Below are positions 2,795-19,809 of a stretch of DNA of 64,000 nucleotides, one piece after another. Origin of the DNA: Escherichia phage AV123. The stretch lies in the sequence record OR352953.1, one strand, 5' to 3'. Under the pieces are notes generated by a model, which saw nothing but the letters and a program-made list of their open reading frames with translations, searched no databases and was not told where the DNA came from. Position 1 is the stretch's first letter; each line of letters opens with the position of its first letter. Both the position numbers and the translations under genes were made by a program.

Positions 2795-4681
2795 ATGTAT
2801 CCTATTCCTTTATTTATGTCAACAACATCAGCTTCAGTAGTAACAGCTACATCTATAACTACTTCCTCTATTGGTATTGCAATAGTTGGTGGTAAAAAAC
2901 AACTGACATACACAGTTACACCGGAAGATGGTGCATTATTTGATATAGCTTTTTCATCTTCAGATGATACCAAAATGGTTATAGATAATAATGGTATGAT
3001 GGAGTTTGTTGCCGAAGGTGGTTTTGATGCAATAATGACAGCTAAAAATAATTTAGGTGCTGTCTTAACTGATCAATCTGGTGGTTATGCTTCAGAATTA
3101 AGTGTGTACACTGAAAGTCTATCGGCTATGGATGTAGGCACTACTCAACAGTTGGTTGCTACAATCCGTCCAGAAGGTGCTAAAGACCTTCCAGACATGG
3201 TAATTACATACACCACAACAGATCCAGAAGTAGCTACTGTAAGCTCTACAGGATTAATAACTGCTCTTAAAGATGGCAATTGCCGTATAGGTTGTACTGC
3301 AACGTATCAAGGAACAGTTGTGGCCTCTGATAGTTCTTATTTAGGTGTTAATGCTATTCCTGTTATTTCTAATGTAACAGCCGTGGCAAACAGTTATGGA
3401 GACGTTCGTGTTGCTTGGGATGTAACTGATCCGCTAGATGGTGATACTTATACTGTAGAAGTATTAGATTTAAGTGATAATAGTGTCCAGTGGACTACAA
3501 CAACCACAAATACTTACGCCTACTTTGATATCTCTGACTCTATTCCTCTTTATGGGTTTGCTCCAACATACCTTAAAATTAGCGTTAAGAGCACCAAAGC
3601 AGCAGCCGTTATCTTTAATAGCTCAATAGCTACAGATGATTCATTCATTAAAGAAGTTATTGTCTTTGCTGGACAAGATAACGTAAATGCACACTTTACA
3701 GAACTATCTGGCGCAAATAAAGCAGCAATGAGTAGCACAACAGCCCGTAATGCATATGCTACGCAACGTGGTTTAGCAAATGCTGAAGTTCTTCCGTTAA
3801 ATGCAGCTTCTGGATCATCAGCAGCAGATAAATATGCAGATGATAAAGCCGGAACAGGAACGCCAGACAACTACTGGTATGATCTGGATAACACAGCAGA
3901 TGGGCCATGCTTAACTAACTTTATCACTAAAGTCACACCTTATGCAAGTAAGGTTAAAGCAATTATTTGGGGACAAGGTGAAAATGATGCTGTATCAGCA
4001 TCTTCGACTGTTGCAGGTAGGTACAGTAACACTACACGTTACCATGATGCTACGATAGCTATCTTTGATAAGATGCGTACAATAGTTCCTGCTTCTCAAG
4101 CAAAAATTGTTTGGCAGATCCTAGGACGTTCTTATTTATATGGTGTAGAAGTTAATGGTGTGGATTGGCAGAAGTACAGAAATGTACAAAGAACCATCTC
4201 TACAGCACGTGATGATGTTATCATTGGTTCTTGGGTAGATGGTGCTGAACGTTACAGTGGTTATGTTTATGAAGAAGGTATTGATGGTCGTATCCATTAT
4301 ATTTCTTCTGTATACCAAACAGCAGCTACAAAACTTGCTAAATCGGCAGCAGACGGTACAGACTTAACATCAGCGTCACCTGTTTGGGTTGATATGTCTG
4401 TTCCAACAGGAGGAGCCGCTGTAAGACAAGCTAACCAAGATGCAATTATCTCTTGGGAACCAGCAGGATATACTAAACATTACTTCCGAAATGTAAACGT
4501 CCTCACAGCAGCAATTCTTACAGAACAAACCCTGGATACTAACACTTACACATTTACTTATGCAGATCAGGTTGAACAATATGGATTTGCAGCAGGTACA
4601 ACAGCGTTTGATGTTGCACACTATGATGCTGATAATGACGTGTTATCACCTCTTGTCAGATTTACAGTCAATGTTACATAA
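2795..4681 (+). CDS. Large tail fibre/spike protein with possible SGNH/SASA-type esterase motif
   Basis: AAGGAG RBS; T/S/V-rich Ig-like N-terminal region; IIWGQGENDA resembles the W-x-QGE-xD motif of sialate O-acetylesterase-like hydrolases. Confidence 0.55.
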   Translation: MYPIPLFMSTTSASVVTATSITTSSIGIAIVGGKKQLTYTVTPEDGALFDIAFSSSDDTKMVIDNNGMMEFVAEGGFDAIMTAKNNLGAVLTDQSGGYASELSVYTESLSAMDVGTTQQLVATIRPEGAKDLPDMVITYTTTDPEVATVSSTGLITALKDGNCRIGCTATYQGTVVASDSSYLGVNAIPVISNVTAVANSYGDVRVAWDVTDPLDGDTYTVEVLDLSDNSVQWTTTTTNTYAYFDISDSIPLYGFAPTYLKISVKSTKAAAVIFNSSIATDDSFIKEVIVFAGQDNVNAHFTELSGANKAAMSSTTARNAYATQRGLANAEVLPLNAASGSSAADKYADDKAGTGTPDNYWYDLDNTADGPCLTNFITKVTPYASKVKAIIWGQGENDAVSASSTVAGRYSNTTRYHDATIAIFDKMRTIVPASQAKIVWQILGRSYLYGVEVNGVDWQKYRNVQRTISTARDDVIIGSWVDGAERYSGYVYEEGIDGRIHYISSVYQTAATKLAKSAADGTDLTSASPVWVDMSVPTGGAAVRQANQDAIISWEPAGYTKHYFRNVNVLTAAILTEQTLDTNTYTFTYADQVEQYGFAAGTTAFDVAHYDADNDVLSPLVRFTVNVT

Positions 4682-8033: not shown

Positions 8034-10613
8034 CTAGTGACAACTGGCCCATGAGTTACCAACATCGTAACCAGCAGTGAGAGGTACATTAAGATTGTAA
8101 TACTCACCAGCTTTATTAACAGCGATAGATGCTAATTCTCCAGCACGACTGTAGGCTGTAAACCAACCACCTTTTGGAGACTCATGTACGTTAGCCCAAA
8201 TCTTGCCAGTACGTTTCTCTTCCTCTTCTTTCCAGGCATTAACTTTATCCAAACATTCTTTATCAATTTTCTTTTGTTCATCTGGATCATCAACTTGAGT
8301 CCAACCTAAAGATTCTTTAGAGAACCATTTAAAATGCACCAGATCACGAGTTACTTCAAGCTGTGCTTCATCGTGATATGCAATCATTTGTTGAACGAAT
8401 GACTTATTTTTCCAGTCATCAACAAAAAAGTCAACAGCTAATCCTTCTTCTTCGATAAGATCGTCGTAGATAACCATTGCTCTTTTTGCACAAATAACAC
8501 CACCACTCTGGAACAGAGAGTTAAGTATTGCGTGTGCAGATCGTGTAGGTACTTTTCTACCATCAATACCAAGAATGTATTTCTTACCTGTTTTAACCCA
8601 AAAATCATGCAGACGTTCTTTAAGAAGCGCAAGAGGTTTTGCAGCTTCCCAGAAAGCATCGTATACAAGCTGTCCTGTATACATATCACTACCTATAGTT
8701 TTTGCTACTTTTGCAGCTTGAGCACCATAAGTAATACCATACTTAACAGATTTAGCAGGGCTTCGTTCAAACTTACGACCAATAGTGTCAGAAATACGTC
8801 GAGCCATCATTGTATGAACATCATTAGGTTTTTCCAATAACAGAGCATTACAATATTCGTGTGGTTCCTGCTCGTACCGCCAACAGTAGTGTGATTCTAT
8901 TTTTGCCTCAAGAGAATCAAAGTCATAACCAATTTGGAAATATTTTGGAACTTCTACACCAAATAAGTTACGCATTTCATATCCGTACAGAGATGTTACA
9001 CGTGGGATATTTGCTACTAACCTATGTTTCATACGAGACGTAGCTGCATCACACGTTGCAGCAGGAGTTGGTATACGACCATCAGCCCTTACTGCCGCCA
9101 GATAACCTTTATCGTAATCCTCTTCATCTTCTTCCCAATCAGCACCACCCCCTAGGATAGAGTTTCTACGATGTTTATACGTAAGATACTGCACAATCTG
9201 CGTAGCATAAGGAAACTTTTCACCTAGTGCTTCCAAGTTAGGACAAATATCCTTCTCTTGCCCTTTTGTAAAGGAAGGGTTAGTAAGCACTTTAACACCA
9301 CGACCTTTAGCTTTAGCAATACGATCTCTTAGTTTCCATTCCAAAGTTTCTGGTGTGCACTCCAGATGATCACATCTGTCCTGGCAGAAGTTAGATGCTA
9401 ATGTTTGATCAACATAGTCACGAATAGCTTTCTCCATTTGTGCTTCATCTTTCTTAATCTTAGTGCCAGATTTAAGAGTGATATCTTTATCTTTATATTC
9501 AGATGGACTCCAACCTAAACCAACCAGCCAATTTTTAATATGCGTAGTGTCGTCTAAAGTAGCAGGTACTGTAGGATCACAAATAGGTTCCTCTGCTGGA
9601 ATAGGGAGTTTAAACTCTTTACCTAATGCAAATAACCACCAACCATCTTCTTTTTGTACAAGTTCACCAGAATGTTTCTCTGCAAACTTTACCATGTTAC
9701 TTGAAGGTTCACCATTCTTTTTAAACTGTAGTTTAGGTGGAATGAATGATTTCAAATAACCTTTAGTAGCAGGTTTAGGAGGTAGCACAGGTTCTGCCTC
9801 TAAACGACATGCTTCCATTCGAGCATCCAGATCACGAATATTATCTTCTGCTTGTTTCATATTGAAAGCAAAGCCACGGTGCTCTTGACGTGTAATAATA
9901 TCAGCTACACGTTGTTCTAAGTTAAATGGTTCAGACCACTTACTATAATCACCCCACTCTTCCATCAAATAACGGAACACTGCGGTGTTAGCTTTGTTAT
10001 CGTAAATACAGTAATACAGCATATCTGCTGCAAATGTTCTAAATCTTTCAGCTTCAGGAATGTTTTTTCTGAAATCAATTTTAACATCCCCTCCAGCCTT
10101 CTTAGATAACTCTGCCAGACTATGACCACCGAAGCGATCAGGGTTTAGTGTCTTACTTAAGATCATAGTATCACAAATTTCAATGTTACTATTACCCCAA
10201 GTATTGTACTTAACACTGTAGTTGAGTTTAAAAAATAATTTAATTGCCAGTAAGTCGAAGTTAATGATGTTGTGTCCAACTACTTTGGTAATTTTATAGT
10301 TTGAATTACCTTTAAATTTACCTGTTCCATTTACAAAATCAGGAAAATCTTTAAGAGGGAAATGGGTATATTCTAAATGCTCATATTCCTCCAGTCGGTA
10401 TTCATACTTTCCGTCAGTCTCAACATACGGACGACCATCGAAAAGATATTTATCACCATCATGGAAAGCAATAATCTCTCCAGTATCATGACTTTCGCAC
10501 ACAATACAGTGCATTGCAAAACTATCTTTTAAACGATATGGACTTGCCAAGTAATCTACACTTTCGTCATTAAGCAAGTTGTTACTTTCAATGTCGAAAG
10601 TAAAAGCTCCCAT
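8034..10613 (-). CDS. Family A DNA polymerase
   Basis: AGGAGGG RBS; motif A-like DFDSLEAKI, motif B-like RSPAKSVKYGITYG, motif C YHDE; 859 aa. Confidence 0.85.
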   Translation of the reverse strand: MGAFTFDIESNNLLNDESVDYLASPYRLKDSFAMHCIVCESHDTGEIIAFHDGDKYLFDGRPYVETDGKYEYRLEEYEHLEYTHFPLKDFPDFVNGTGKFKGNSNYKITKVVGHNIINFDLLAIKLFFKLNYSVKYNTWGNSNIEICDTMILSKTLNPDRFGGHSLAELSKKAGGDVKIDFRKNIPEAERFRTFAADMLYYCIYDNKANTAVFRYLMEEWGDYSKWSEPFNLEQRVADIITRQEHRGFAFNMKQAEDNIRDLDARMEACRLEAEPVLPPKPATKGYLKSFIPPKLQFKKNGEPSSNMVKFAEKHSGELVQKEDGWWLFALGKEFKLPIPAEEPICDPTVPATLDDTTHIKNWLVGLGWSPSEYKDKDITLKSGTKIKKDEAQMEKAIRDYVDQTLASNFCQDRCDHLECTPETLEWKLRDRIAKAKGRGVKVLTNPSFTKGQEKDICPNLEALGEKFPYATQIVQYLTYKHRRNSILGGGADWEEDEEDYDKGYLAAVRADGRIPTPAATCDAATSRMKHRLVANIPRVTSLYGYEMRNLFGVEVPKYFQIGYDFDSLEAKIESHYCWRYEQEPHEYCNALLLEKPNDVHTMMARRISDTIGRKFERSPAKSVKYGITYGAQAAKVAKTIGSDMYTGQLVYDAFWEAAKPLALLKERLHDFWVKTGKKYILGIDGRKVPTRSAHAILNSLFQSGGVICAKRAMVIYDDLIEEEGLAVDFFVDDWKNKSFVQQMIAYHDEAQLEVTRDLVHFKWFSKESLGWTQVDDPDEQKKIDKECLDKVNAWKEEEEKRTGKIWANVHESPKGGWFTAYSRAGELASIAVNKAGEYYNLNVPLTAGYDVGNSWASCH

Positions 10614-11109: not shown

Positions 11110-12882
11110 TTAATAAGAACCATCAGGAATATTCTCTGGGTTACTTGTATATTGATCGTAATCGTGAAGTGTAGCTGTTTTAATCTCATAGAAGAAACTA
11201 CCTGCTGCACCAGTCTCTGAGAACTCACGGTTCTTTAGAATGTAGCAATATGTACGGTTACGTTCCATAGGATCTTCAGCTTGTTTATCACGCTCCAGCG
11301 CAATTGTAATACCAGCACCTTTAGCAAGGAAGCTACTACCCATTGCATCATCTTCTACAATATGTTCATTACTATTGTTAGAAGACTTTTTAACGTGTGA
11401 AATTACAACAATGGTAATTGCGTACTCTTTCATAATGCGTTTCAGCCACGTCGCAAGTTCCTCTTGTTGTGACACGTCCATACCAGAAAGCAAATCAGAA
11501 TAAGGGTCGATAACAAGAATGGTTACTCCGAAATAAATAATCATTTCCAGAACCTTCTCTTTAATCACATCTACGTTAGCTCCACGATCATCACAAACAT
11601 AGAAACGTGGTGTTCCATCTTCTCGTTCGTAAAAATCACGAATCTTTTCTTCATTATCTTTTAAAATCTTTTCCTTCTCTTCTTTTGTTTTACGGTGAAG
11701 AGGGATATGCAAGAATGAAGACAGCAAGTTACGAGAATACTTCTTATACGTTGCCTCCAAAGATAAAATACCAAGAGTATGTTCTGGGTGTGCAAGAATA
11801 ATGTGTTTCGTAATCTCGTTAACCAACAGTGTCTTACCGATACTTGTTTTTGCAAGTATAACAGTAATTTCTTCTTCTACCAAGCCTCCACCTAACATAT
11901 TAGAAGCAACACGCATGAATGGAGGAAGGGTGATCATTTTAGCTTCCAGGCATTCCAGGGCTGCTTCATACAGTACGTTAGAAGCGTAAACACCAGCAGG
12001 TGTGTACAGTTTAGCTTTGAAAAAGCGATCAATAAAATGATCAATTTTTCCTTCTACTAGTGCCTGGTTAGGATCTTTAACATCCGTTAGTTCCATCACG
12101 TAAACTTTATTACGTGGTAAGATTTTAACACATTTCTCAACTGCTGCACGTCCAGCTTCATCATTATCCATACATAGAACAATCTTTTTAAATTGATCTA
12201 AGAATTTATAACGATGTTGAAGCTGCTTATGCAGAGATGTTTCGCCACAAGTACCAGATACTACAGCAGGAACAGGATATTTACCACCCTTATTATAATC
12301 TTTTAGCATCTGTGTTGCAGCCAGCATATCGTGTTCACCACCAACGATTAGAATAGTACCGCTGTGGTTACGATATTTAAACTCCCCAAAAAGATCACAA
12401 TCCTTTCCTGTTTCACCGATAGGATGCGAGAAATCTTTTGGATCGATACGTTGTTTATACCCAGCAATATTGTAATCTTTAGTTGTAGGGTATAGTGTTG
12501 AAATTACTTCGCCAGTAGCCTCATCGTACATATAGCGTACACCGAAAGGCTTAGAGATATCTTCACGAATACCACGATAACCTTTTGGATTAGTTCCAGT
12601 GCTGGCTTTTAGTTTATCATGTACTTCTTGATTAAACTCACTACCCAAGATATCCTCCTCTTCAATTTCTTCGCCGTGTGCATTTAACCATTTTTGATCA
12701 GGGATAGTAAAGCCACAAGAAAAACAATGTGCGCCTCGATGGTCTTCATCGGCATCTAAGCCATATACCATCAAATTGTTTTGTGATCGATCACGCCCTC
12801 CTTTCATACAACGAGGACACCCAGTATGTCCTTCTTGACTTAGATCAATGTTATACCCATATTTATTTACAACATAAGACAC
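11110..12882 (-). CDS. Primase-helicase (T7 gp4-like)
   Basis: GTG start after GGAGA; N-terminal Cys4 zinc ribbon (CPRC...CFSCGF), TOPRIM-like DNDEAG, DnaB-type Walker A AKTSIGKT. Confidence 0.85.
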   Translation of the reverse strand: MSYVVNKYGYNIDLSQEGHTGCPRCMKGGRDRSQNNLMVYGLDADEDHRGAHCFSCGFTIPDQKWLNAHGEEIEEEDILGSEFNQEVHDKLKASTGTNPKGYRGIREDISKPFGVRYMYDEATGEVISTLYPTTKDYNIAGYKQRIDPKDFSHPIGETGKDCDLFGEFKYRNHSGTILIVGGEHDMLAATQMLKDYNKGGKYPVPAVVSGTCGETSLHKQLQHRYKFLDQFKKIVLCMDNDEAGRAAVEKCVKILPRNKVYVMELTDVKDPNQALVEGKIDHFIDRFFKAKLYTPAGVYASNVLYEAALECLEAKMITLPPFMRVASNMLGGGLVEEEITVILAKTSIGKTLLVNEITKHIILAHPEHTLGILSLEATYKKYSRNLLSSFLHIPLHRKTKEEKEKILKDNEEKIRDFYEREDGTPRFYVCDDRGANVDVIKEKVLEMIIYFGVTILVIDPYSDLLSGMDVSQQEELATWLKRIMKEYAITIVVISHVKKSSNNSNEHIVEDDAMGSSFLAKGAGITIALERDKQAEDPMERNRTYCYILKNREFSETGAAGSFFYEIKTATLHDYDQYTSNPENIPDGSY

Positions 12883-12894
12883 ATGATTCTCCTA

Positions 12895-13164
12895 CTAAAA
12901 TGATTCGTTTGTCTCCATAATATATTGCATTTCCAAATCTTCCATATGTTTCTTAAATTGGTAAACAATTTCCGATGGGGAAATATCTATATCAAAAAGT
13001 TCTTTTGTGCCAGAATAAAACCTAATACCATCAACAATAAGACCACCATAATAATCCCAATCACTTTCTCGTGAGAAAGGATTAGGTTCTTCATAATAGT
13101 AATCTACTTCAACAATAATAGGTTCTTTATTATCTTGTTTATACTCAAAATCAAAAGTGTTCAT
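12895..13164 (-). CDS. Hypothetical protein
   Basis: ORF in operon, overlaps neighbour by 1 nt. Confidence 0.45.
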   Translation of the reverse strand: MNTFDFEYKQDNKEPIIVEVDYYYEEPNPFSRESDWDYYGGLIVDGIRFYSGTKELFDIDISPSEIVYQFKKHMEDLEMQYIMETNESF

Positions 13165-14108
13165 TATAAATCCTCGATAAGCAGTCTGCGGGTTTCATTT
13201 AAATCATCAATATTGTAGTTATCTCTTACATACTTAGCAAGAGCCAATCCTTTCTCAATACAAACATCAGGAGATTCGATTAAGTATTCTACAATATCTT
13301 TCCACTCTTTAACTGAATCAGCAAAGAAGATTAGGTCTTTAAATTCTTCAGTATAATAGTTCTCTCGTGGTGAACAAACGAGTGGCAAACCTTTAGCACC
13401 AGCTTCAAGAATTTTTAAATTACTTTTGGCATTATTAAAATGATTATTTACCAATGGAGCTATGGAGATTTGATGACCATCGTATGCTTCCATATAACAT
13501 TCATAAGGACGAATACCTTCATAAACACAATCTGGTTGAATATCTTCTTTAATTTGCAACCATTGAGCACTACTTAACTCTTCGTGATCTCTACGAAATC
13601 CACATAAAGTTAAATCTTTACCAAAATCAGGAAGAATTGCTAAATCATGTTTATGTGTTTCACTTCCCGCCCAAACTAGTGGACTTTTAGAATAACGGTC
13701 TTTCGTAAGAACAAACTGTCCTTCATCAAAAGGTAATCCGTTAGGCACAATATGTACATTATCATTGTATTGGCTTAATTCAACCTTTAATGCCGGAGTT
13801 GTTGTAGTTACAAGATCGCTTCTTTCAAGGAACCATTTTAGGTCATCTCGGATTTGATTTTCAAATAGTCCTTCAAGCATATGCCCTTCAGGAATAATTA
13901 AAGAATCATCCAGATCCATTACCAATTTAAACCCAAGTTGTTTAAGAGCCAGGAAACCTGGCTTTCCACGTGTTGGTACTCCATTGAACACAAAAATATT
14001 ATGCTTAGGATTAATTGTCAGTTTGCGTTTATATGGCAAAATGATTCTATGAAAATCACATACACTATACTTTTCATTTCCGCGTGTGTCAAGAATAATA
14101 TTAGGCAT
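13164..14108 (-). CDS. Glycosyltransferase (GT-B fold, GT4-like)
   Basis: C-terminal KILEAGAKGLPLVCSP matches the GT4 E-x7-E region; paralog of adjacent gene. Confidence 0.6.
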   Translation of the reverse strand: MPNIILDTRGNEKYSVCDFHRIILPYKRKLTINPKHNIFVFNGVPTRGKPGFLALKQLGFKLVMDLDDSLIIPEGHMLEGLFENQIRDDLKWFLERSDLVTTTTPALKVELSQYNDNVHIVPNGLPFDEGQFVLTKDRYSKSPLVWAGSETHKHDLAILPDFGKDLTLCGFRRDHEELSSAQWLQIKEDIQPDCVYEGIRPYECYMEAYDGHQISIAPLVNNHFNNAKSNLKILEAGAKGLPLVCSPRENYYTEEFKDLIFFADSVKEWKDIVEYLIESPDVCIEKGLALAKYVRDNYNIDDLNETRRLLIEDL

Positions 14109-14119
14109 ATAACTCCTTG

Positions 14120-15094
14120 TTAAAGACTTTCAATAACTTGACGACGCAGTTCATTGGCATCTGCAAGATTATAATTAAGACGAACGTGTTCTGCAAGCAT
14201 CATACCACGATCTTCTGTGTATCTAGGGTTCCTCATTAGCTTGACAACTTCATAATGCCAAGATGCTTTAGAATCTGCATAGATAACAGCCTTTGCATCT
14301 ACCGGATTGAAGTACGGCAGCACAGGAGAACAGATAATAGGAAGACCCTTTGCACCTGCTTCCAAAATCTTCAAATTGCTTTTACAGTTGTTGAAGTCAT
14401 TATCTACCAGGGGAGCAATTGCAATACTGTGACCGTCATACACAGACATATACTCACCTAAATTTTTAATAGCTGGTTTATACTGTGCATTTGGAATTTT
14501 ACGTTTTATTTTAACCCACTCCGCAGTAGTTAGATACTGACTGTTATTTCCAACAGGTGCAGAAGGATACACTTCATACCCTGCAATTGTCAATAGTGTA
14601 TCATCAAATGTATTAGCTACAAGAGATAAATCAGGTTCGTGGCTTGCTCCTCCAGCCCAGATAATAGGCGTGTCAGAATTACGGTCTTTTGTCAAAGTAA
14701 ATTGACCTTCGTCGTAAGGTAGTGCGTTTCTAATAACGACAACATTACGATTTAAATGACGAATTTTGTAAGCTAGGTATTCTGTTGTTACAGTAACAAC
14801 ATCTGCTAACTTGACCATCTCTACAATAGTCTTTGAGTGATTAGTAAATACGCCAGCCATATAATGTTCAGGATTAAGTGAATAAAAATCATCTAAATCA
14901 ACAATAATCTTAACACCTTGTGCCTTCAGGCGTTTAACCTCGTCTGCTCCACGAGAATACACTCTATTAAAAACTAAAACGTCTTTCTTAGGTTTAAACG
15001 TATTTCCAGCAAATGGCATTACAATACGATGGTAATCACAACCACTGCCTAACTTATTATCACACTTAAGTACAGGAGTATTAGGATTTACCAT
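14120..15094 (-). CDS. Glycosyltransferase (GT-B fold), tandem paralog
   Basis: KILEAGAKGLPIICSP and YDGHSIAIAPLVDNDFNNCKSN parallel the upstream gene; start set at internal ATG with GAGGAGG RBS. Confidence 0.6.
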   Translation of the reverse strand: MVNPNTPVLKCDNKLGSGCDYHRIVMPFAGNTFKPKKDVLVFNRVYSRGADEVKRLKAQGVKIIVDLDDFYSLNPEHYMAGVFTNHSKTIVEMVKLADVVTVTTEYLAYKIRHLNRNVVVIRNALPYDEGQFTLTKDRNSDTPIIWAGGASHEPDLSLVANTFDDTLLTIAGYEVYPSAPVGNNSQYLTTAEWVKIKRKIPNAQYKPAIKNLGEYMSVYDGHSIAIAPLVDNDFNNCKSNLKILEAGAKGLPIICSPVLPYFNPVDAKAVIYADSKASWHYEVVKLMRNPRYTEDRGMMLAEHVRLNYNLADANELRRQVIESL

Positions 15095-15767
15095 ATTTTT
15101 GAGCCTCCTCATAAGAGATAAAAGTTTTACCATTGCGAAGATCCTCCAGTGATTGTTTATATTGTTCCCAGTTTACACCAATCCCCTGTTCTTTCTCTTC
15201 TTTTGACAGATTCGCAAAAGGTAAAGGATTGTCTCCAAATACATCATCAGGATGGATAAACGCCATAATTCGAATAGGACATGGCACGCCTTGAATACCT
15301 CGGTTCAAACCTGCCAGTGGAACGCGATGAATCCACTCTGCATCTTCATATCCATAACCGTGGGTGTATGAGCGGAAATAGCCAGCTTTCTCAATAACTG
15401 CACGGGAATACATACCAAACTGGCACATACCTAGTTCCCAAATAACCACTTCCCCTTCAATACCTTTTACTTTATCTTTAAAGTATTCAGGCATACCAAA
15501 GAAATCCCAACCATTTTCCTTCGCCTGTTTTACAAAATATGTTTCCCAACCTTGAACAACAGGATAGCAATCATCATCAAAAATAAACCAGTAATCATAC
15601 CCTTCATCATAAAACTTTTTCATCAGTTCATTACGAGCATATGCAACACCTTTTCGTTCCCGATCATACTGTACAACAAAAGTAGCATTAGGATCAGTCA
15701 CAAGATAATCTTTAAGAGGACGCTTACCTACAGTAATAACACCAACACCAATTTTTGTATTTTCCAA
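15081..15767 (-). CDS. Putative GT-A-like glycosyltransferase
   Basis: TTG start after AAGGAG; WFIFDDDCYP DxD-type motif. Confidence 0.45.
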   Translation of the reverse strand: MENTKIGVGVITVGKRPLKDYLVTDPNATFVVQYDRERKGVAYARNELMKKFYDEGYDYWFIFDDDCYPVVQGWETYFVKQAKENGWDFFGMPEYFKDKVKGIEGEVVIWELGMCQFGMYSRAVIEKAGYFRSYTHGYGYEDAEWIHRVPLAGLNRGIQGVPCPIRIMAFIHPDDVFGDNPLPFANLSKEEKEQGIGVNWEQYKQSLEDLRNGKTFISYEEAQKYGKS

Positions 15768-15776
15768 AATAACTCC

Positions 15777-16340
15777 TTAAATAATTTTATTCATGTCTTG
15801 ACAATGTAAAAGGTGTGAAATAGCTTTTCTAGGATCATCATTACCTAAACGGTATGTGTGAAATAAGTATAACCCACGTAGTAAACCTAGCCTTTTATTG
15901 TTAGCGTGTAATGCTTTAGAGAAAATTATATCAAACTGTATTGACCTTTCCTCAAAAGGGATTTCATTCCACAGACTCTTACGAAAGAGAAGAAAGAATC
16001 CTGCTAAGATAGCATCTGTAGGTACTTCCTCTATTGAGTTTCCCCATTCTAGATGTGCTCTTTTTGCAATCTCAATGTGGTGTAATATATTCGGATCTTC
16101 ACTTCTTTCATTATTAAATAATTGATATGTTGATCCCAATCTGTTACAAGATGCACCAAGAACATCAAAATCAGGATTTGAACGGACAATTGATTCCAGC
16201 CAAGCAGGTTGTTCTGGAAGAAGAAACATTGTATCAATGTCTCTTAGGCAAATCCAACTATCTTCTGGTAAGACACTTATTGTGTCATTGATACCTTTTC
16301 CAATATCTCCAGAAAGATAGGGAGTTATGTGAAATATCAT
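15777..16340 (-). CDS. Putative nucleotide-sugar glycosyltransferase-like protein
   Basis: GGAGGGAG RBS; LRDIDTMF DxD-like motif. Confidence 0.4.
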   Translation of the reverse strand: MIFHITPYLSGDIGKGINDTISVLPEDSWICLRDIDTMFLLPEQPAWLESIVRSNPDFDVLGASCNRLGSTYQLFNNERSEDPNILHHIEIAKRAHLEWGNSIEEVPTDAILAGFFLLFRKSLWNEIPFEERSIQFDIIFSKALHANNKRLGLLRGLYLFHTYRLGNDDPRKAISHLLHCQDMNKII

Positions 16341-16397
16341 ACTCCCTCCGTATTATTACTTTAGCATTTTTAGACTAAAAAGTCCAAATGGTTTTAC

Positions 16398-16592
16398 CTA
16401 TTGATTACGTTTTGCGAGTTCCATTTGGATAGCTAAACTGTGATCTCGTGCTTCCATATACTCTTTATATGTTTCATTAAGATGATCACGACAAACATCA
16501 CGCAGTTTAATCAGTTTATCTGTAGGGATACCACTAAGATCATCCCAAGATTTTACAACTTCACCAGTATCATTGATCCCAATGGTTTTCAT
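16398..16592 (-). CDS. Hypothetical protein
   Basis: AAGGAGG RBS. Confidence 0.45.
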   Translation of the reverse strand: MKTIGINDTGEVVKSWDDLSGIPTDKLIKLRDVCRDHLNETYKEYMEARDHSLAIQMELAKRNQ

Positions 16593-16800
16593 CTACAACC
16601 TCCTTAATTGCTACAGCACAGTTTTTGCAGATACACTGCCCTTTACCTTTAGAAATCTGAATGTAAGGTTCATTTTCATTTTCGCCCTTACGTGAGTCAT
16701 ATATTACAGTATTGAAGCACACAACGCAAATATTTTTTAAGATTGTATACTTATCAACTTTCTTTTTTGTTTTAAAGTTAACTTCAATAACATCAGCCAT
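16570..16800 (-). CDS. Zinc-ribbon microprotein
   Basis: Start ATG overlaps upstream stop (TGATG); two CxxC pairs (CVVC...CKNC). Confidence 0.45.
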   Translation of the reverse strand: MADVIEVNFKTKKKVDKYTILKNICVVCFNTVIYDSRKGENENEPYIQISKGKGQCICKNCAVAIKEVVDENHWDQ

Positions 16801-17088: not shown

Positions 17089-17598
17089 TTAGCGATAAAA
17101 TTGATGTTCTTTGTAGCGGTACACTAGAACCATATCTTTTTCCCAGTGTGCTCTTATTGTAGATTTTTTAAAGTATAATGCTCCTTTTGTAATATCTAAT
17201 GCAATTCGTAATTCTGGAAAATGCGTATCGAGATAAAGTAGACGTTCTGCTATAGCCTTAGCTTCCTTCCACTTATCACGTTCCATAACGTTGAATGTCT
17301 TTGTGTAAGAGAATTGTCCTTTTTGAAACAAAACTTCTTTTATAGTATCAGGGAAATATGAATCTCTAGCCCTATTCAATACTACATTACCAACAGCAGA
17401 CATACCGCGCTTTCCTTGATTACGACTTTCTGCATAGATTGCACAAGCTAATAGATTTTCTTTACTATCACGCTTTGTACACTTGTGAACTACTTTAGCA
17501 GTTTTTACGTTTGCAGCTTCGGCTTGCGCCACAACAGGTGTAAATGTAAAAGCAGTTAAGGATAGTAACGCAATTGCGACAAAGGTTTTTATTGACAA
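17089..17598 (-). CDS. Secreted cell-wall hydrolase (SleB / Hydrolase_2-like), candidate endolysin
   Basis: TTG start after AGGAGG; N-terminal signal peptide ending AQAEA; AVGNVVLNRARDSYFPDTIKEVLFQKGQFSY resembles the SleB-type core. Confidence 0.6.
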   Translation of the reverse strand: MSIKTFVAIALLSLTAFTFTPVVAQAEAANVKTAKVVHKCTKRDSKENLLACAIYAESRNQGKRGMSAVGNVVLNRARDSYFPDTIKEVLFQKGQFSYTKTFNVMERDKWKEAKAIAERLLYLDTHFPELRIALDITKGALYFKKSTIRAHWEKDMVLVYRYKEHQFYR

Positions 17599-18345: not shown

Positions 18346-18942
18346 TTACTCGAACCAATCGTCGCCAGCGCCAAACGCTTTAACTACATCATAAATGTCA
18401 AGTCCAGCTTTACCTACACCATATGCTTTCAGTTTCCATTCGCTATCTTCCCGCACCAGGGAGGCAACGTGGCAAATGGTATTACCTGCAAGTTCTGGAG
18501 CCAAGAAGTCAAAATCCAGCAGTTCAACGTTACGTTCATCATCGAAGATTTTAAGGAAACCTTCGGTAGCGTGACCAAGGCGTTTCTTACCCGTTTCGTC
18601 ATCAATAGTGATTACGAATGCAATTTCCTGTGCTTCAGCAGAGATATTATCCAGTGTAACATCAATCTGCTCCATTTGTCCTACACCGTCACGAACATCT
18701 TCACCTGCAAAAGTAGAACGTTCAGGATCAAATTTCTGTGCGTAGCATACCAGGTGGCGAGGAGACAACAGTTCCGGCAGACCAGATGCATTGTGTCGGC
18801 AAATCAGAGCACTAACATCCAGATCCAGTTTTTCGTTAGATTTCCAAGAGAATTCCAGACGAATGCGTTTCAGTGCTGGTGCAATCTTTTTCAGAGAAAC
18901 TTTTTCGCTAGAACCTTTTTTCAGGGAAATTTTCTGAGTCAT
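18346..18942 (-). CDS. TerD-family protein
   Basis: N-terminal ISLKKGSSEKVSLKK and acidic GEDVRDGVGQME region resemble TerD signatures; about 198 aa. Confidence 0.65.
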   Translation of the reverse strand: MTQKISLKKGSSEKVSLKKIAPALKRIRLEFSWKSNEKLDLDVSALICRHNASGLPELLSPRHLVCYAQKFDPERSTFAGEDVRDGVGQMEQIDVTLDNISAEAQEIAFVITIDDETGKKRLGHATEGFLKIFDDERNVELLDFDFLAPELAGNTICHVASLVREDSEWKLKAYGVGKAGLDIYDVVKAFGAGDDWFE

Positions 18943-19014: not shown

Positions 19015-19809
19015 TTACGCTTTTGCTCCAAATTTTTTAACCCACTCGCCAAACTCTTCGGATAGCAGTTTATTGTAAAGTTCTTCGTCAGACAAGGACA
19101 AATCTGCAATACCGATAAAATCAACGTTATCGTATTCTTTTGCCAAGTCTTTCAGGAATTTAAAGTTTGCATTACCTACACCAACCATAAACCAGTAAAC
19201 AGGAGTGTTGCGGTGTTTGTTCAGCAAACTACGTACTGCTGAAGTATCCATGTTCTCCCCGTCAGTTTGGAAGAAAATCATTGCAGGAGTACGATCAACT
19301 TGTGCATCAGTATCTACAACCTGTTCTACAACAGTACGTGTAACTTCTACACGTTCTTTTTTACCAGTTAGTTTAGCAAGGAAACCCTTAGCCGGAACTT
19401 CTTCATACTCAACGACTTCGCGTGTAATATTTTTCATAGGTACACTACCGAAGTATGTATCATAGATCTCTTGCATTACTGGAGCATAAGCTGTACCACC
19501 ATTGATGCAAACATTAGACATACAAGAGCCGACATAATCATCATATACATCAGCCGTTGCAGGAGGCAGTTCAAAAGAAGAACTATTGAAAGCCCACATG
19601 TCAATCTGTGCATTATCATCAAACTTCATACCAAACGGCAGCAGCTTACCTACAAAATCACTGACAGTGCCATCACGATACAGCTCACACATACTACCCG
19701 AAATATCTAAGGCGCTACCTACACGAAGAACAACATCGTTAATCTTTTTCTTACGCAGGGATACAGTAAGAGTTTCTTGACGTTTTTTAAGACTGATTTT
19801 ATTGGACAT
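19015..19809 (-). CDS. vWA-domain protein (TerY-like)
   Basis: MIDAS motif DISGSM after a hydrophobic strand; TerD-like ISLKK N-terminus. Confidence 0.6.
   Translation of the reverse strand: MSNKISLKKRQETLTVSLRKKKINDVVLRVGSALDISGSMCELYRDGTVSDFVGKLLPFGMKFDDNAQIDMWAFNSSSFELPPATADVYDDYVGSCMSNVCINGGTAYAPVMQEIYDTYFGSVPMKNITREVVEYEEVPAKGFLAKLTGKKERVEVTRTVVEQVVDTDAQVDRTPAMIFFQTDGENMDTSAVRSLLNKHRNTPVYWFMVGVGNANFKFLKDLAKEYDNVDFIGIADLSLSDEELYNKLLSEEFGEWVKKFGAKA

Follow-up and report, generated by a model that had tools for sequence, protein, structure and literature searches.

Escherichia phage AV123 (OR352953.1) carries four adjacent glycosyltransferase genes, GT4, GT3, GT2 and GT1 in the order of the cassette, on the minus strand at positions 13164-16340 of the 64,000-nucleotide stretch of DNA analyzed here (the window). 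Judged by homology, these genes are one version of a mobile cassette, made up of GT4 with or without GT3 and GT-B genes, that occurs in dozens of unrelated phages and prophages. We tentatively favor the reading that the cassette attaches a rhamnose-containing oligosaccharide, by O-glycosylation, to virion proteins of the phage itself. The mobility of the cassette, its co-occurrence with the rml genes of the deoxythymidine diphosphate (dTDP)-rhamnose pathway and the homology of GT3 to mycobacteriophage glycosyltransferases are new findings of this analysis.

The window is assigned to Justusliebigvirus (Stephanstirmvirinae), that is, to a phi92-like virulent myophage of about 147 kb, because the region 12800-16700 is nearly identical to its counterparts in Escherichia phages inny (99.4%), phi92 (98.9%) and PaulScherrer/Bas60 (98.5%). 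At least 80% of this region is covered by 52 phage records, nearly all of them at 95% identity or more. The four open reading frames (ORFs) of the cassette are packed with gaps of at most 12 nucleotides or with overlaps, and their neighbors in the window are the genes for a primase/helicase and a DNA polymerase. GT4 (15777..16340, 187 amino acids) is a minimal GT-A glycosyltransferase and the most widely conserved member; GT3 (15081..15767, 228 amino acids) is an accessory GT-A enzyme with a TTG start that is preceded by an AAGGAG ribosome-binding site; GT2 (14120..15133, 337 amino acids in its longest ORF) and GT1 (13164..14108, 314 amino acids) are paralogous GT-B enzymes, GT1 being GT4-family-like (a family name distinct from the gene GT4). 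Their counterparts in phi92 are gp163-166, which correspond to GT1, GT2, GT3 and GT4 in that order. The annotation of gp163-166 as glycosyltransferases was already known: RefSeq labels all four 'glycosyltransferase', and the BASEL annotation names two of them 'putative disaccharide synthase' and two 'putative glycosyltransferase'. The first-pass annotation, which had recognized four glycosyltransferase-like genes at this position, is borne out by profiles, conserved motifs and predicted folds. None of the four proteins has a transmembrane segment (maximum 19-residue Kyte-Doolittle score of at most 1.2), and hydropathy predicts all of them to be soluble; GT1, GT3 and GT4 are acidic, with isoelectric points (pI) of 5.1-5.6.

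GT1 and GT2 share 41% identity (E 1e-81), in agreement with their earlier description as tandem paralogs of the GT-B type, and both match phrog_7162 (E 2e-145 and 7e-149, respectively). GT1 passes the cut-off of Pfam Glyco_trans_1_2 (26.8 bits against 25), and GT2 scores 14.4-17.9 bits, under the cut-offs, in weak matches to Glyco_trans_1_4 and Glyco_trans_1_2; the NCBIfam scan gave zero matches for any of the four proteins. A profile built from 29 GT1 homologs reaches MshA and TreT in the PDB (E 6e-4), the only useful result of the PDB sequence searches, in which single proteins and the GT3 and GT4 profiles found nothing useful. The AlphaFold2 model of GT1 (predicted local distance difference test score 93.5) has alternating beta and alpha elements in two halves. 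Foldseek matches this model to the GT4-family enzymes 7qsg, 3c4q, 3mbo and 8dvz at E values of about 1e-9, and to MshA, BshA, PglA, TreT and the mannosyltransferase 7qsg with a probability of 1.0. GT1 is thus modeled as a GT-B fold with two Rossmann-like domains, and the same fold is assigned to GT2 through its identity to GT1. Residues K228-S229, K232 and E235 are invariant in the GT1 family. E235 corresponds to the second glutamate of the E-x7-E motif of retaining GT4-family enzymes and aligns with the glutamate of the MshA 'MEA' sequence, while the first position of the motif is replaced by a family-specific insert that bears the invariant K228-S229. The true start of GT2 is probably M14, at 15094, which would give a protein of 324 amino acids; a GAGGAGG sequence lies 9 nucleotides before this ATG, and the M14 start overlaps the GT3 stop by 14 nucleotides. 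GT2 is annotated in its short form in the ALITA record and in its long form in PaulScherrer.

GT3 and GT4 each consist of a single GT-A domain with a conserved DxD metal/nucleotide motif, and the invariance of this motif in both proteins upholds the earlier view of two smaller DxD-bearing GT-A-like genes. GT3 matches phrog_2456 (E 2e-79), and its family of 19 homologs has invariant F63-D64-D65-D66 and Y138-G139-x-E141-D142. The Pfam matches of the 19 family members are all weak: TAGT in 17, Glyco_transf_7C in 11 and Glycos_transf_2 in 11, the best TAGT E value in the family being 3.9e-5. GT3 itself scores 24.1 bits on TAGT (TET-associated glycosyltransferase, PF20691), against a cut-off of 27.5, over residues 16-79 only, which is the generic nucleotide-binding/DxD part. 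Membership of GT3 in TAGT was rejected because its score is below the Pfam cut-off and no TET gene is annotated. The structural matches of GT4 include RmlT, TarP, K4CP and SpsA, and a profile-profile comparison of GT3 with GT4 is weakly consistent with a common GT-A layout. GT4 also matches LH3 and COLGALT1 structurally; a connection of these matches to the collagen-repeat tail fiber of this phage (794-2755) is a lead at most, because the matches are generic GT-A ones.

A scan of IMG/VR with a GT4 profile returned 65 loci, 34 of which contain a GT3 homolog and 28 a GT-B homolog, always on the same strand. The compositions of the cassette in these loci are GT4-GT3-GTB-GTB, GT4-GTB-GTB, GT4-GTB, GT4-GT3 and GT3-GTB-GT4. 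At the syntenic site, Klebsiella Stephanstirmvirinae have GT4 and one GT-B gene only, together with a retained rml pathway, and since just this pair is kept it is the conserved core; GT3 is missing from some Stephanstirmvirinae relatives. In other phages a GT4 homolog heads larger glycan islands that include GT-D-like and Stealth proteins, Methyltransf_24, DegT and sugar dehydratases. The gene order in Pseudomonas prophages is Big_2 protein, GT3 (hmmsearch E 1e-79), GT-B, phage metallopeptidase, terminase and portal. In Burkholderia and Trinickia, the GT-B homolog adjoins an inverse-autotransporter adhesin with Big_1 and Invasin_D3 domains, and the most distant bacterial GT-B homologs, those of Armatimonadota, sit with a Wzy-like membrane protein, a GT2-family enzyme and a GT4-family enzyme. 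A search beside the cassette for a conserved non-glycosyltransferase partner, either acceptor or carrier, found flanking small ORFs that are kept only within Stephanstirmvirinae.

The Trinickia and Burkholderia genes form a conserved four-gene locus of their own (L020, L021 and L023; about 2.6-10.4 kb per locus). It comprises the adhesin (IAT_beta, Big_1, Invasin_D3), a protein of about 555 amino acids, the GT-B homolog and, on the opposite strand, a gene for about 490 amino acids with a weak match to an FlgD Ig-like domain. From its gene content, this locus may be an adhesin glycosylation system.

The most common neighbor families in 48 viral loci from outside Stephanstirmvirinae are portal, HK97-type capsid, TerL, S78 prohead protease and head-tail connector. 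Recognized head markers are present in 30 non-Stephanstirmvirinae loci, and in 28 of these the cassette lies at most four genes from TerL, portal, protease, major capsid protein (MCP) or connector. Twelve loci, which dereplication at 80% identity reduces to 10 groups, have the cassette within the head module, for example as MCP-[GT3-GT4]-connector or TerL-[GT4...]-portal, and the cassette is directly upstream of the terminase in locus L008, in Streptomyces phage Zuko and in the Pseudomonas prophages. Random placement of the cassette gave per-locus probabilities of 0.08-0.78 for such proximity to head genes, which is not significant because the 10-kb flank on each side spans much of a 40-kb genome. 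The association of the cassette with head genes is suggestive, and is graded no higher because these probabilities are individually unconvincing.

A complete dTDP-rhamnose pathway has been reported in phi92-like and phAPEC8-like phages (Olsen et al. 2020). In PaulScherrer, which is 98.5% identical to AV123 over the glycosyltransferase region, rmlB-A-C-D occupy 119.2-122.5 kb, a position beyond the window and some 70 kb away from the glycosyltransferase genes. RmlB (443 bits against 365) and RmlD (254 against 224) both pass the NCBIfam equivalog cut-offs, and RmlA and RmlC have strong Pfam matches. As read in PaulScherrer, the complete RmlA-D pathway is predicted to be phage-encoded. We infer that dTDP-L-rhamnose is a donor for the cassette because the rml genes and the cassette co-occur: tblastn detected RmlC and the GT-B family in 105 and 106 Escherichia records and in 8 and 10 Klebsiella records, respectively, and the clades common to both are Justusliebigvirus, Phapecoctavirus and Klebsiella Stephanstirmvirinae. 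A gene for a nucleoside diphosphate (NDP)-sugar dehydratase/epimerase also occurs inside the cassette in two related metagenomic contigs (L014 and L054).

GT3 connects the cassette to phages of mycobacteria. By tblastn it matches 535 Mycobacterium phage records, and its family aligns over nearly the full length with MooMoo gp94 (hhalign 99.1%, E 4e-19) and Bxz1 gp226 (99.0%, E 9e-18); Myrna gp234 was found with the GT3 profile (hmmsearch E 1.4e-20). The genes for MooMoo gp94, Bxz1 gp226 and Myrna gp234 all lie within multi-glycosyltransferase cassettes. In Che8, Corndog and Myrna, capsid and tail tube proteins of the virion bear glycans that are added by phage glycosyltransferases, according to accounts (PMC12363180, PMC11256854) of the work of Freeman et al. 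2023 (Cell Host Microbe 31:1216). The homology of GT3 ties the cassette, indirectly, to experimentally glycosylated phages. Together with the frequent position of the cassette beside head genes, it lends support to a protein acceptor, in the virion or elsewhere. Also counted toward a protein acceptor are the adhesin beside the GT-B homologs of Burkholderia and Trinickia, the Big_2 protein before the Pseudomonas prophage cassette, and the Big_2 and collagen-repeat tail fibers of AV123 itself.

We propose that GT4, GT3, GT2 and GT1 would form, in this order, one soluble cytoplasmic cassette of the Leloir type that assembles an oligosaccharide with a length of about four sugars at most. One or more of these would be L-rhamnose, supplied as dTDP-L-rhamnose by the phage rmlBACD genes elsewhere in the genome, and the others would be drawn from UDP- or GDP-sugars of the host. 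The most likely acceptor would be a protein of the virion capsid, sheath/tube or fibers, which may be O-glycosylated in the cytoplasm before or during assembly, by analogy with the action of phage glycosyltransferases in mycobacteriophages. It is possible, if somewhat doubtful, that the cassette represents a widespread, horizontally mobile virion-glycosylation module that coats capsid, tail or fiber proteins of phi92-like phages with a rhamnose-containing oligosaccharide.

The arrangement resembles the mycobacteriophage systems of Che8, Corndog and Myrna in several respects. These also use clusters of two to four phage-encoded soluble glycosyltransferases, GT3 homologs are present in the cassettes of cluster F-like (MooMoo) and cluster C (Bxz1, Myrna) phages, and the cassette may lie off the structural operon, that of Che8 being at the right end of the genome. 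In contrast to the mycobacteriophages, AV123 has a Gram-negative host and is equipped with a dedicated dTDP-rhamnose pathway; moreover, no mycobacteriophage counterpart was detected for the GT-B and GT4-gene families. A second precedent is chlorovirus PBCV-1 (A064R, A111/114R), in which a capsid oligosaccharide is built by virus-encoded enzymes independently of the host machinery. There too, viral cytoplasmic GT-A enzymes and viral synthesis of a rhamnose nucleotide serve to place an oligosaccharide on the major capsid protein, but PBCV-1 is a eukaryotic algal virus with atypical N-linked glycans and multidomain glycosyltransferases.

Several candidate acceptors can be named. Two tail fiber genes are located on the plus strand at 794-2755 and 2795-4681. 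One of the two fibers combines a TSP1/Gp66 N-terminal domain with collagen triple-helix repeats, in which KGD/KGE is common among the GXY runs, and with a C-terminus that resembles fibritin. Big_2 Ig-like domains are found in the other, which the ALITA record names 'carbohydrate esterase'. Both are conceivable targets of glycosylation. The tail sheath of PaulScherrer (L039 10170-11576, outside the window) has an S/T/N-rich end, …NRTANSQNSNSSTVSS, with 9 Ser/Thr in the last 30 residues. Mycobacteriophage glycans are reportedly attached at the C-termini of capsid and tail tube proteins, and the C-terminus of this sheath is a candidate acceptor.

A number of observations weigh against glycosylation of the virion. 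Lipid-linked glycans, too, are built by GT4-family-like GT-B and GT2-family-like GT-A enzymes, and the PDB matches of GT1 are shared by glycosyltransferases that act on phage DNA. The Stephanstirmvirinae cassette belongs to a replication, early-middle block and not to the structural block, and the random-placement test of head-gene proximity described above was not significant. Myrna gp234, the homolog of GT3, may or may not be the enzyme that glycosylates the Myrna virion. GT3 has no similarity to Che8 gp108-110, of which gp110 is the sole Che8 glycosyltransferase named as essential in the sources covered. Literature searches on phi92-like phages, rhamnose and virion glycosylation (the phi92 genome paper being outside their scope) yielded no functional study of gp163-166, and no report of a glycoprotein in phi92-like phages was found.

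The main rival to virion glycosylation is the remodeling of host envelope glycans, which we regard as unlikely. The enzymes would work at the inner membrane, on its cytoplasmic side, with undecaprenyl diphosphate-linked intermediates or the lipopolysaccharide (LPS) core as substrates, and would produce or modify a rhamnose-containing surface glycan that could serve, for example, in superinfection exclusion, in masking the NGR glycan or LPS core from progeny, or as a drain on undecaprenyl phosphate. GT4-family-like GT-B and GT2-family-like GT-A enzymes are indeed the standard builders of O-antigen, core and capsule units; the best structural matches of GT1 include PglA, PimB', WaaG-like enzymes and TarM, and GT4 has the matches to RmlT, TarP, K4CP and SpsA already mentioned. 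The enzyme folds, the donor pathway (rmlBDAC) and the modular gain and loss of genes all recall O-antigen and LPS-core assembly, a likeness echoed in the labels 'RfaG' and 'disaccharide synthase' chosen by annotators. O-antigen clusters typically have a full rml pathway, the varying number of glycosyltransferases among relatives is comparable to surface-glycan diversification, the Armatimonadota homologs keep company with Wzy-like, GT2-family and GT4-family proteins, and phi92-like phages recognize surface glycans (the NGR glycan and the LPS core). However, flippase, polymerase, ligase, initiating phosphoglycosyltransferase and GtrA/B-type genes are absent beside the cassette in all phage loci examined, and, unlike the genes for O-antigen or LPS-core assembly, the cassette is associated with phage head genes in many lineages, sitting in small phages among the late head genes. 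Envelope conversion is a trait of temperate phages, whereas this phage is virulent and has a short cycle, and the relatives of GT3 from characterized lineages are mycobacteriophage glycosyltransferases. The target might also be a cytoplasmic host protein or small molecule, glycosylated for takeover or anti-defense; a host factor might, for example, receive rhamnose or glucose as from a bacterial glycosylating effector, or a metabolite might be inactivated; this is the least probable of the explanations considered. The enzymes are soluble, the early/middle block abounds in host-manipulation genes (for a sirtuin, a macrodomain protein, NAD salvage, a phosphoribosyltransferase and a Ter-like module), and GT-A enzymes with a DxD motif include protein-glycosylating toxins. 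Nevertheless, four sequential enzymes and a dedicated sugar pathway imply an oligosaccharide, which is unusual for monoglycosylation of the effector type, and the same cassette is found in phages of unrelated hosts (Pseudomonas, Chitinophaga, Cellulophaga and, for homologs, mycobacteria), which argues against a host-specific target.

Hypermodification of the phage DNA, by stepwise addition of rhamnose or hexose to a modified base as in the glucosyl-hydroxymethylcytosine of T-even phages or the poly-arabinosyl-5-hydroxycytosine of RB69 and DLP3, is improbable. The cassette adjoins the primase/helicase and DNA polymerase genes, the genome has a Dcm-like C5-methyltransferase, TAGT is the best Pfam match of GT3, and rhamnosylation of hydroxymethylated nucleotides has been proposed (Olsen et al. 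2020). In addition, RB69, DLP3 and RL38J1 make use of sequential DNA glycosyltransferases of the GT4-family-like GT-B type, whose best PDB matches (3mbo, 3c4q, 6kih and 7qsg) are the same as those of GT1, and like the T-even phages they combine such enzymes with NDP-sugar pathways of their own among the genes of DNA metabolism (PMC13326640). These systems differ in requiring a ThyA-homolog hydroxylase or hydroxymethylase, a dCTPase and a nucleotide kinase, and the hydroxyl of the known glycosylated phage bases (hydroxymethylcytosine, hydroxymethyluracil and 5-hydroxycytosine) comes from a ThyA homolog or from TET oxidation (PMC13326640). The first-pass annotation had seen no hydroxymethylase in the window, and a tblastn search with E. 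coli ThyA agrees: no ThyA-family hydroxymethylase or synthase of 5-hydroxy-deoxycytidine monophosphate was found in the window or in the whole PaulScherrer genome (best E 7.6). The thymidylate synthase of PaulScherrer is of the ThyX type (Pfam Thy1, 36.9 bits against a cut-off of 24.8), and neither a dCTPase nor a TET/JBP dioxygenase is annotated in the PaulScherrer record, whose hypothetical proteins were not profile-searched. While DNA of the RB69/T-even type is restriction-resistant, phi92-like phages are 'exceptionally susceptible' to restriction-modification systems despite a 'putative dTDP glycosylation machinery' (BASEL, PMC8594841). DNA is disfavored as the acceptor because of this susceptibility and the lack of a ThyA-family enzyme; furthermore, the TAGT score of GT3 is under the Pfam cut-off and covers the generic part only, no Straboviridae-type or Rhizobium phage is among the matches listed for GT1 in tblastn, and three of the four enzymes are acidic. 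A sparse or unprecedented modification of DNA keeps a small probability, since the GT-B fold cannot decide between acceptors when the DLP3, RB69 and RL38J1 enzymes share the PDB matches of GT1. The first-pass annotation aptly left undecided whether the substrate is DNA, a virion protein or a host polymer; these three options can now be ranked, with DNA as the least likely.

The ThyX protein of PaulScherrer (bas60_0224, L004 16025-16996, outside the window) deserves separate mention. It is long (323 amino acids) and divergent, is the only thymidylate synthase of this phage, falls short of the NCBIfam thyX cut-off (87.9 bits) with its score of 35.5, and has THRLFSRNAASSR in place of the usual RHR motif. 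It is the sole flavin-type pyrimidine enzyme that could conceivably feed a DNA modification; it is probably an ordinary divergent ThyX.

Glycosylation of the virion, if true, would have practical consequences. Phages of the phi92-like and phAPEC8-like groups are among the coliphages of broadest host range, are therapy candidates and are used in therapy cocktails, and a self-made rhamnose glycan on their particles would influence how antibodies recognize them, how they are cleared and how stable they are, effects already demonstrated in mycobacteriophages. These would be the first phages infecting Gram-negative bacteria with self-glycosylated particles, which would overturn the view of virion glycosylation as essentially confined to actinobacteriophages. 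If instead the target is DNA or the host envelope, the cassette would glycosylate it by a route that lacks the hydroxymethylase or flippase partners normally involved. Whichever target applies, the four conserved enzymes and a complete rhamnose pathway occupy about 6 kb of a virulent phage genome.

Records labeled as 'Campylobacter phage' also contain the cassette. In A145 and A110a, the glycosyltransferases and RmlC have 97.8-100% protein identity to those of E. coli Justusliebigvirus, and in B15 they have about 76% protein identity to those of Phapecoctavirus. These records (MG065645, MG065689 and MG065650, B15 included; host C. jejuni) are probably mislabeled or contaminant coliphages.

The small acidic ORF next to the cassette (12895..13164, minus strand; 89 amino acids, pI 4.1) is the equivalent of phi92 gp162 and has a start/stop overlap with GT1. 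It has no family in a Pfam search and is beside the cassette only in Stephanstirmvirinae-like contigs; it is a syntenic neighbor outside the mobile cassette. Promoter and terminator scans remained at chance level and gave no operon boundaries except hairpins near 18.3 kb and 10.7 kb.

The minus-strand gene at 17089-17598, which lies four genes upstream of the cassette, encodes a cell-wall hydrolase of the SleB type (Pfam Hydrolase_2, E 6.5e-20), whose N-terminus is hydrophobic and resembles a signal sequence. A separate endolysin (bas60_0207) is annotated in PaulScherrer, so this phage may possess two lysins. A Ter-like module, here in a virulent phage, includes a TerD-domain protein and a vWA-TerF-like protein (18346-18942 and 19015-19809, minus strand), and synteny with ALITA and PaulScherrer places its continuation at about 23.9-27.7 kb; after the Ter genes, the annotation of relatives lists TerC, a macrodomain protein, a phosphoribosyltransferase and a HAD hydrolase. 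The module resembles the 'Ter-associated nucleoside-like metabolite' gene set reportedly described by Anantharaman et al. 2012. The DNA polymerase (8034-10613, minus strand; 859 amino acids) is intein-free, and that of PaulScherrer (L001 6500-9814) contains a 735-bp intein; an intein is also present in the UvrD-like helicase of PaulScherrer.

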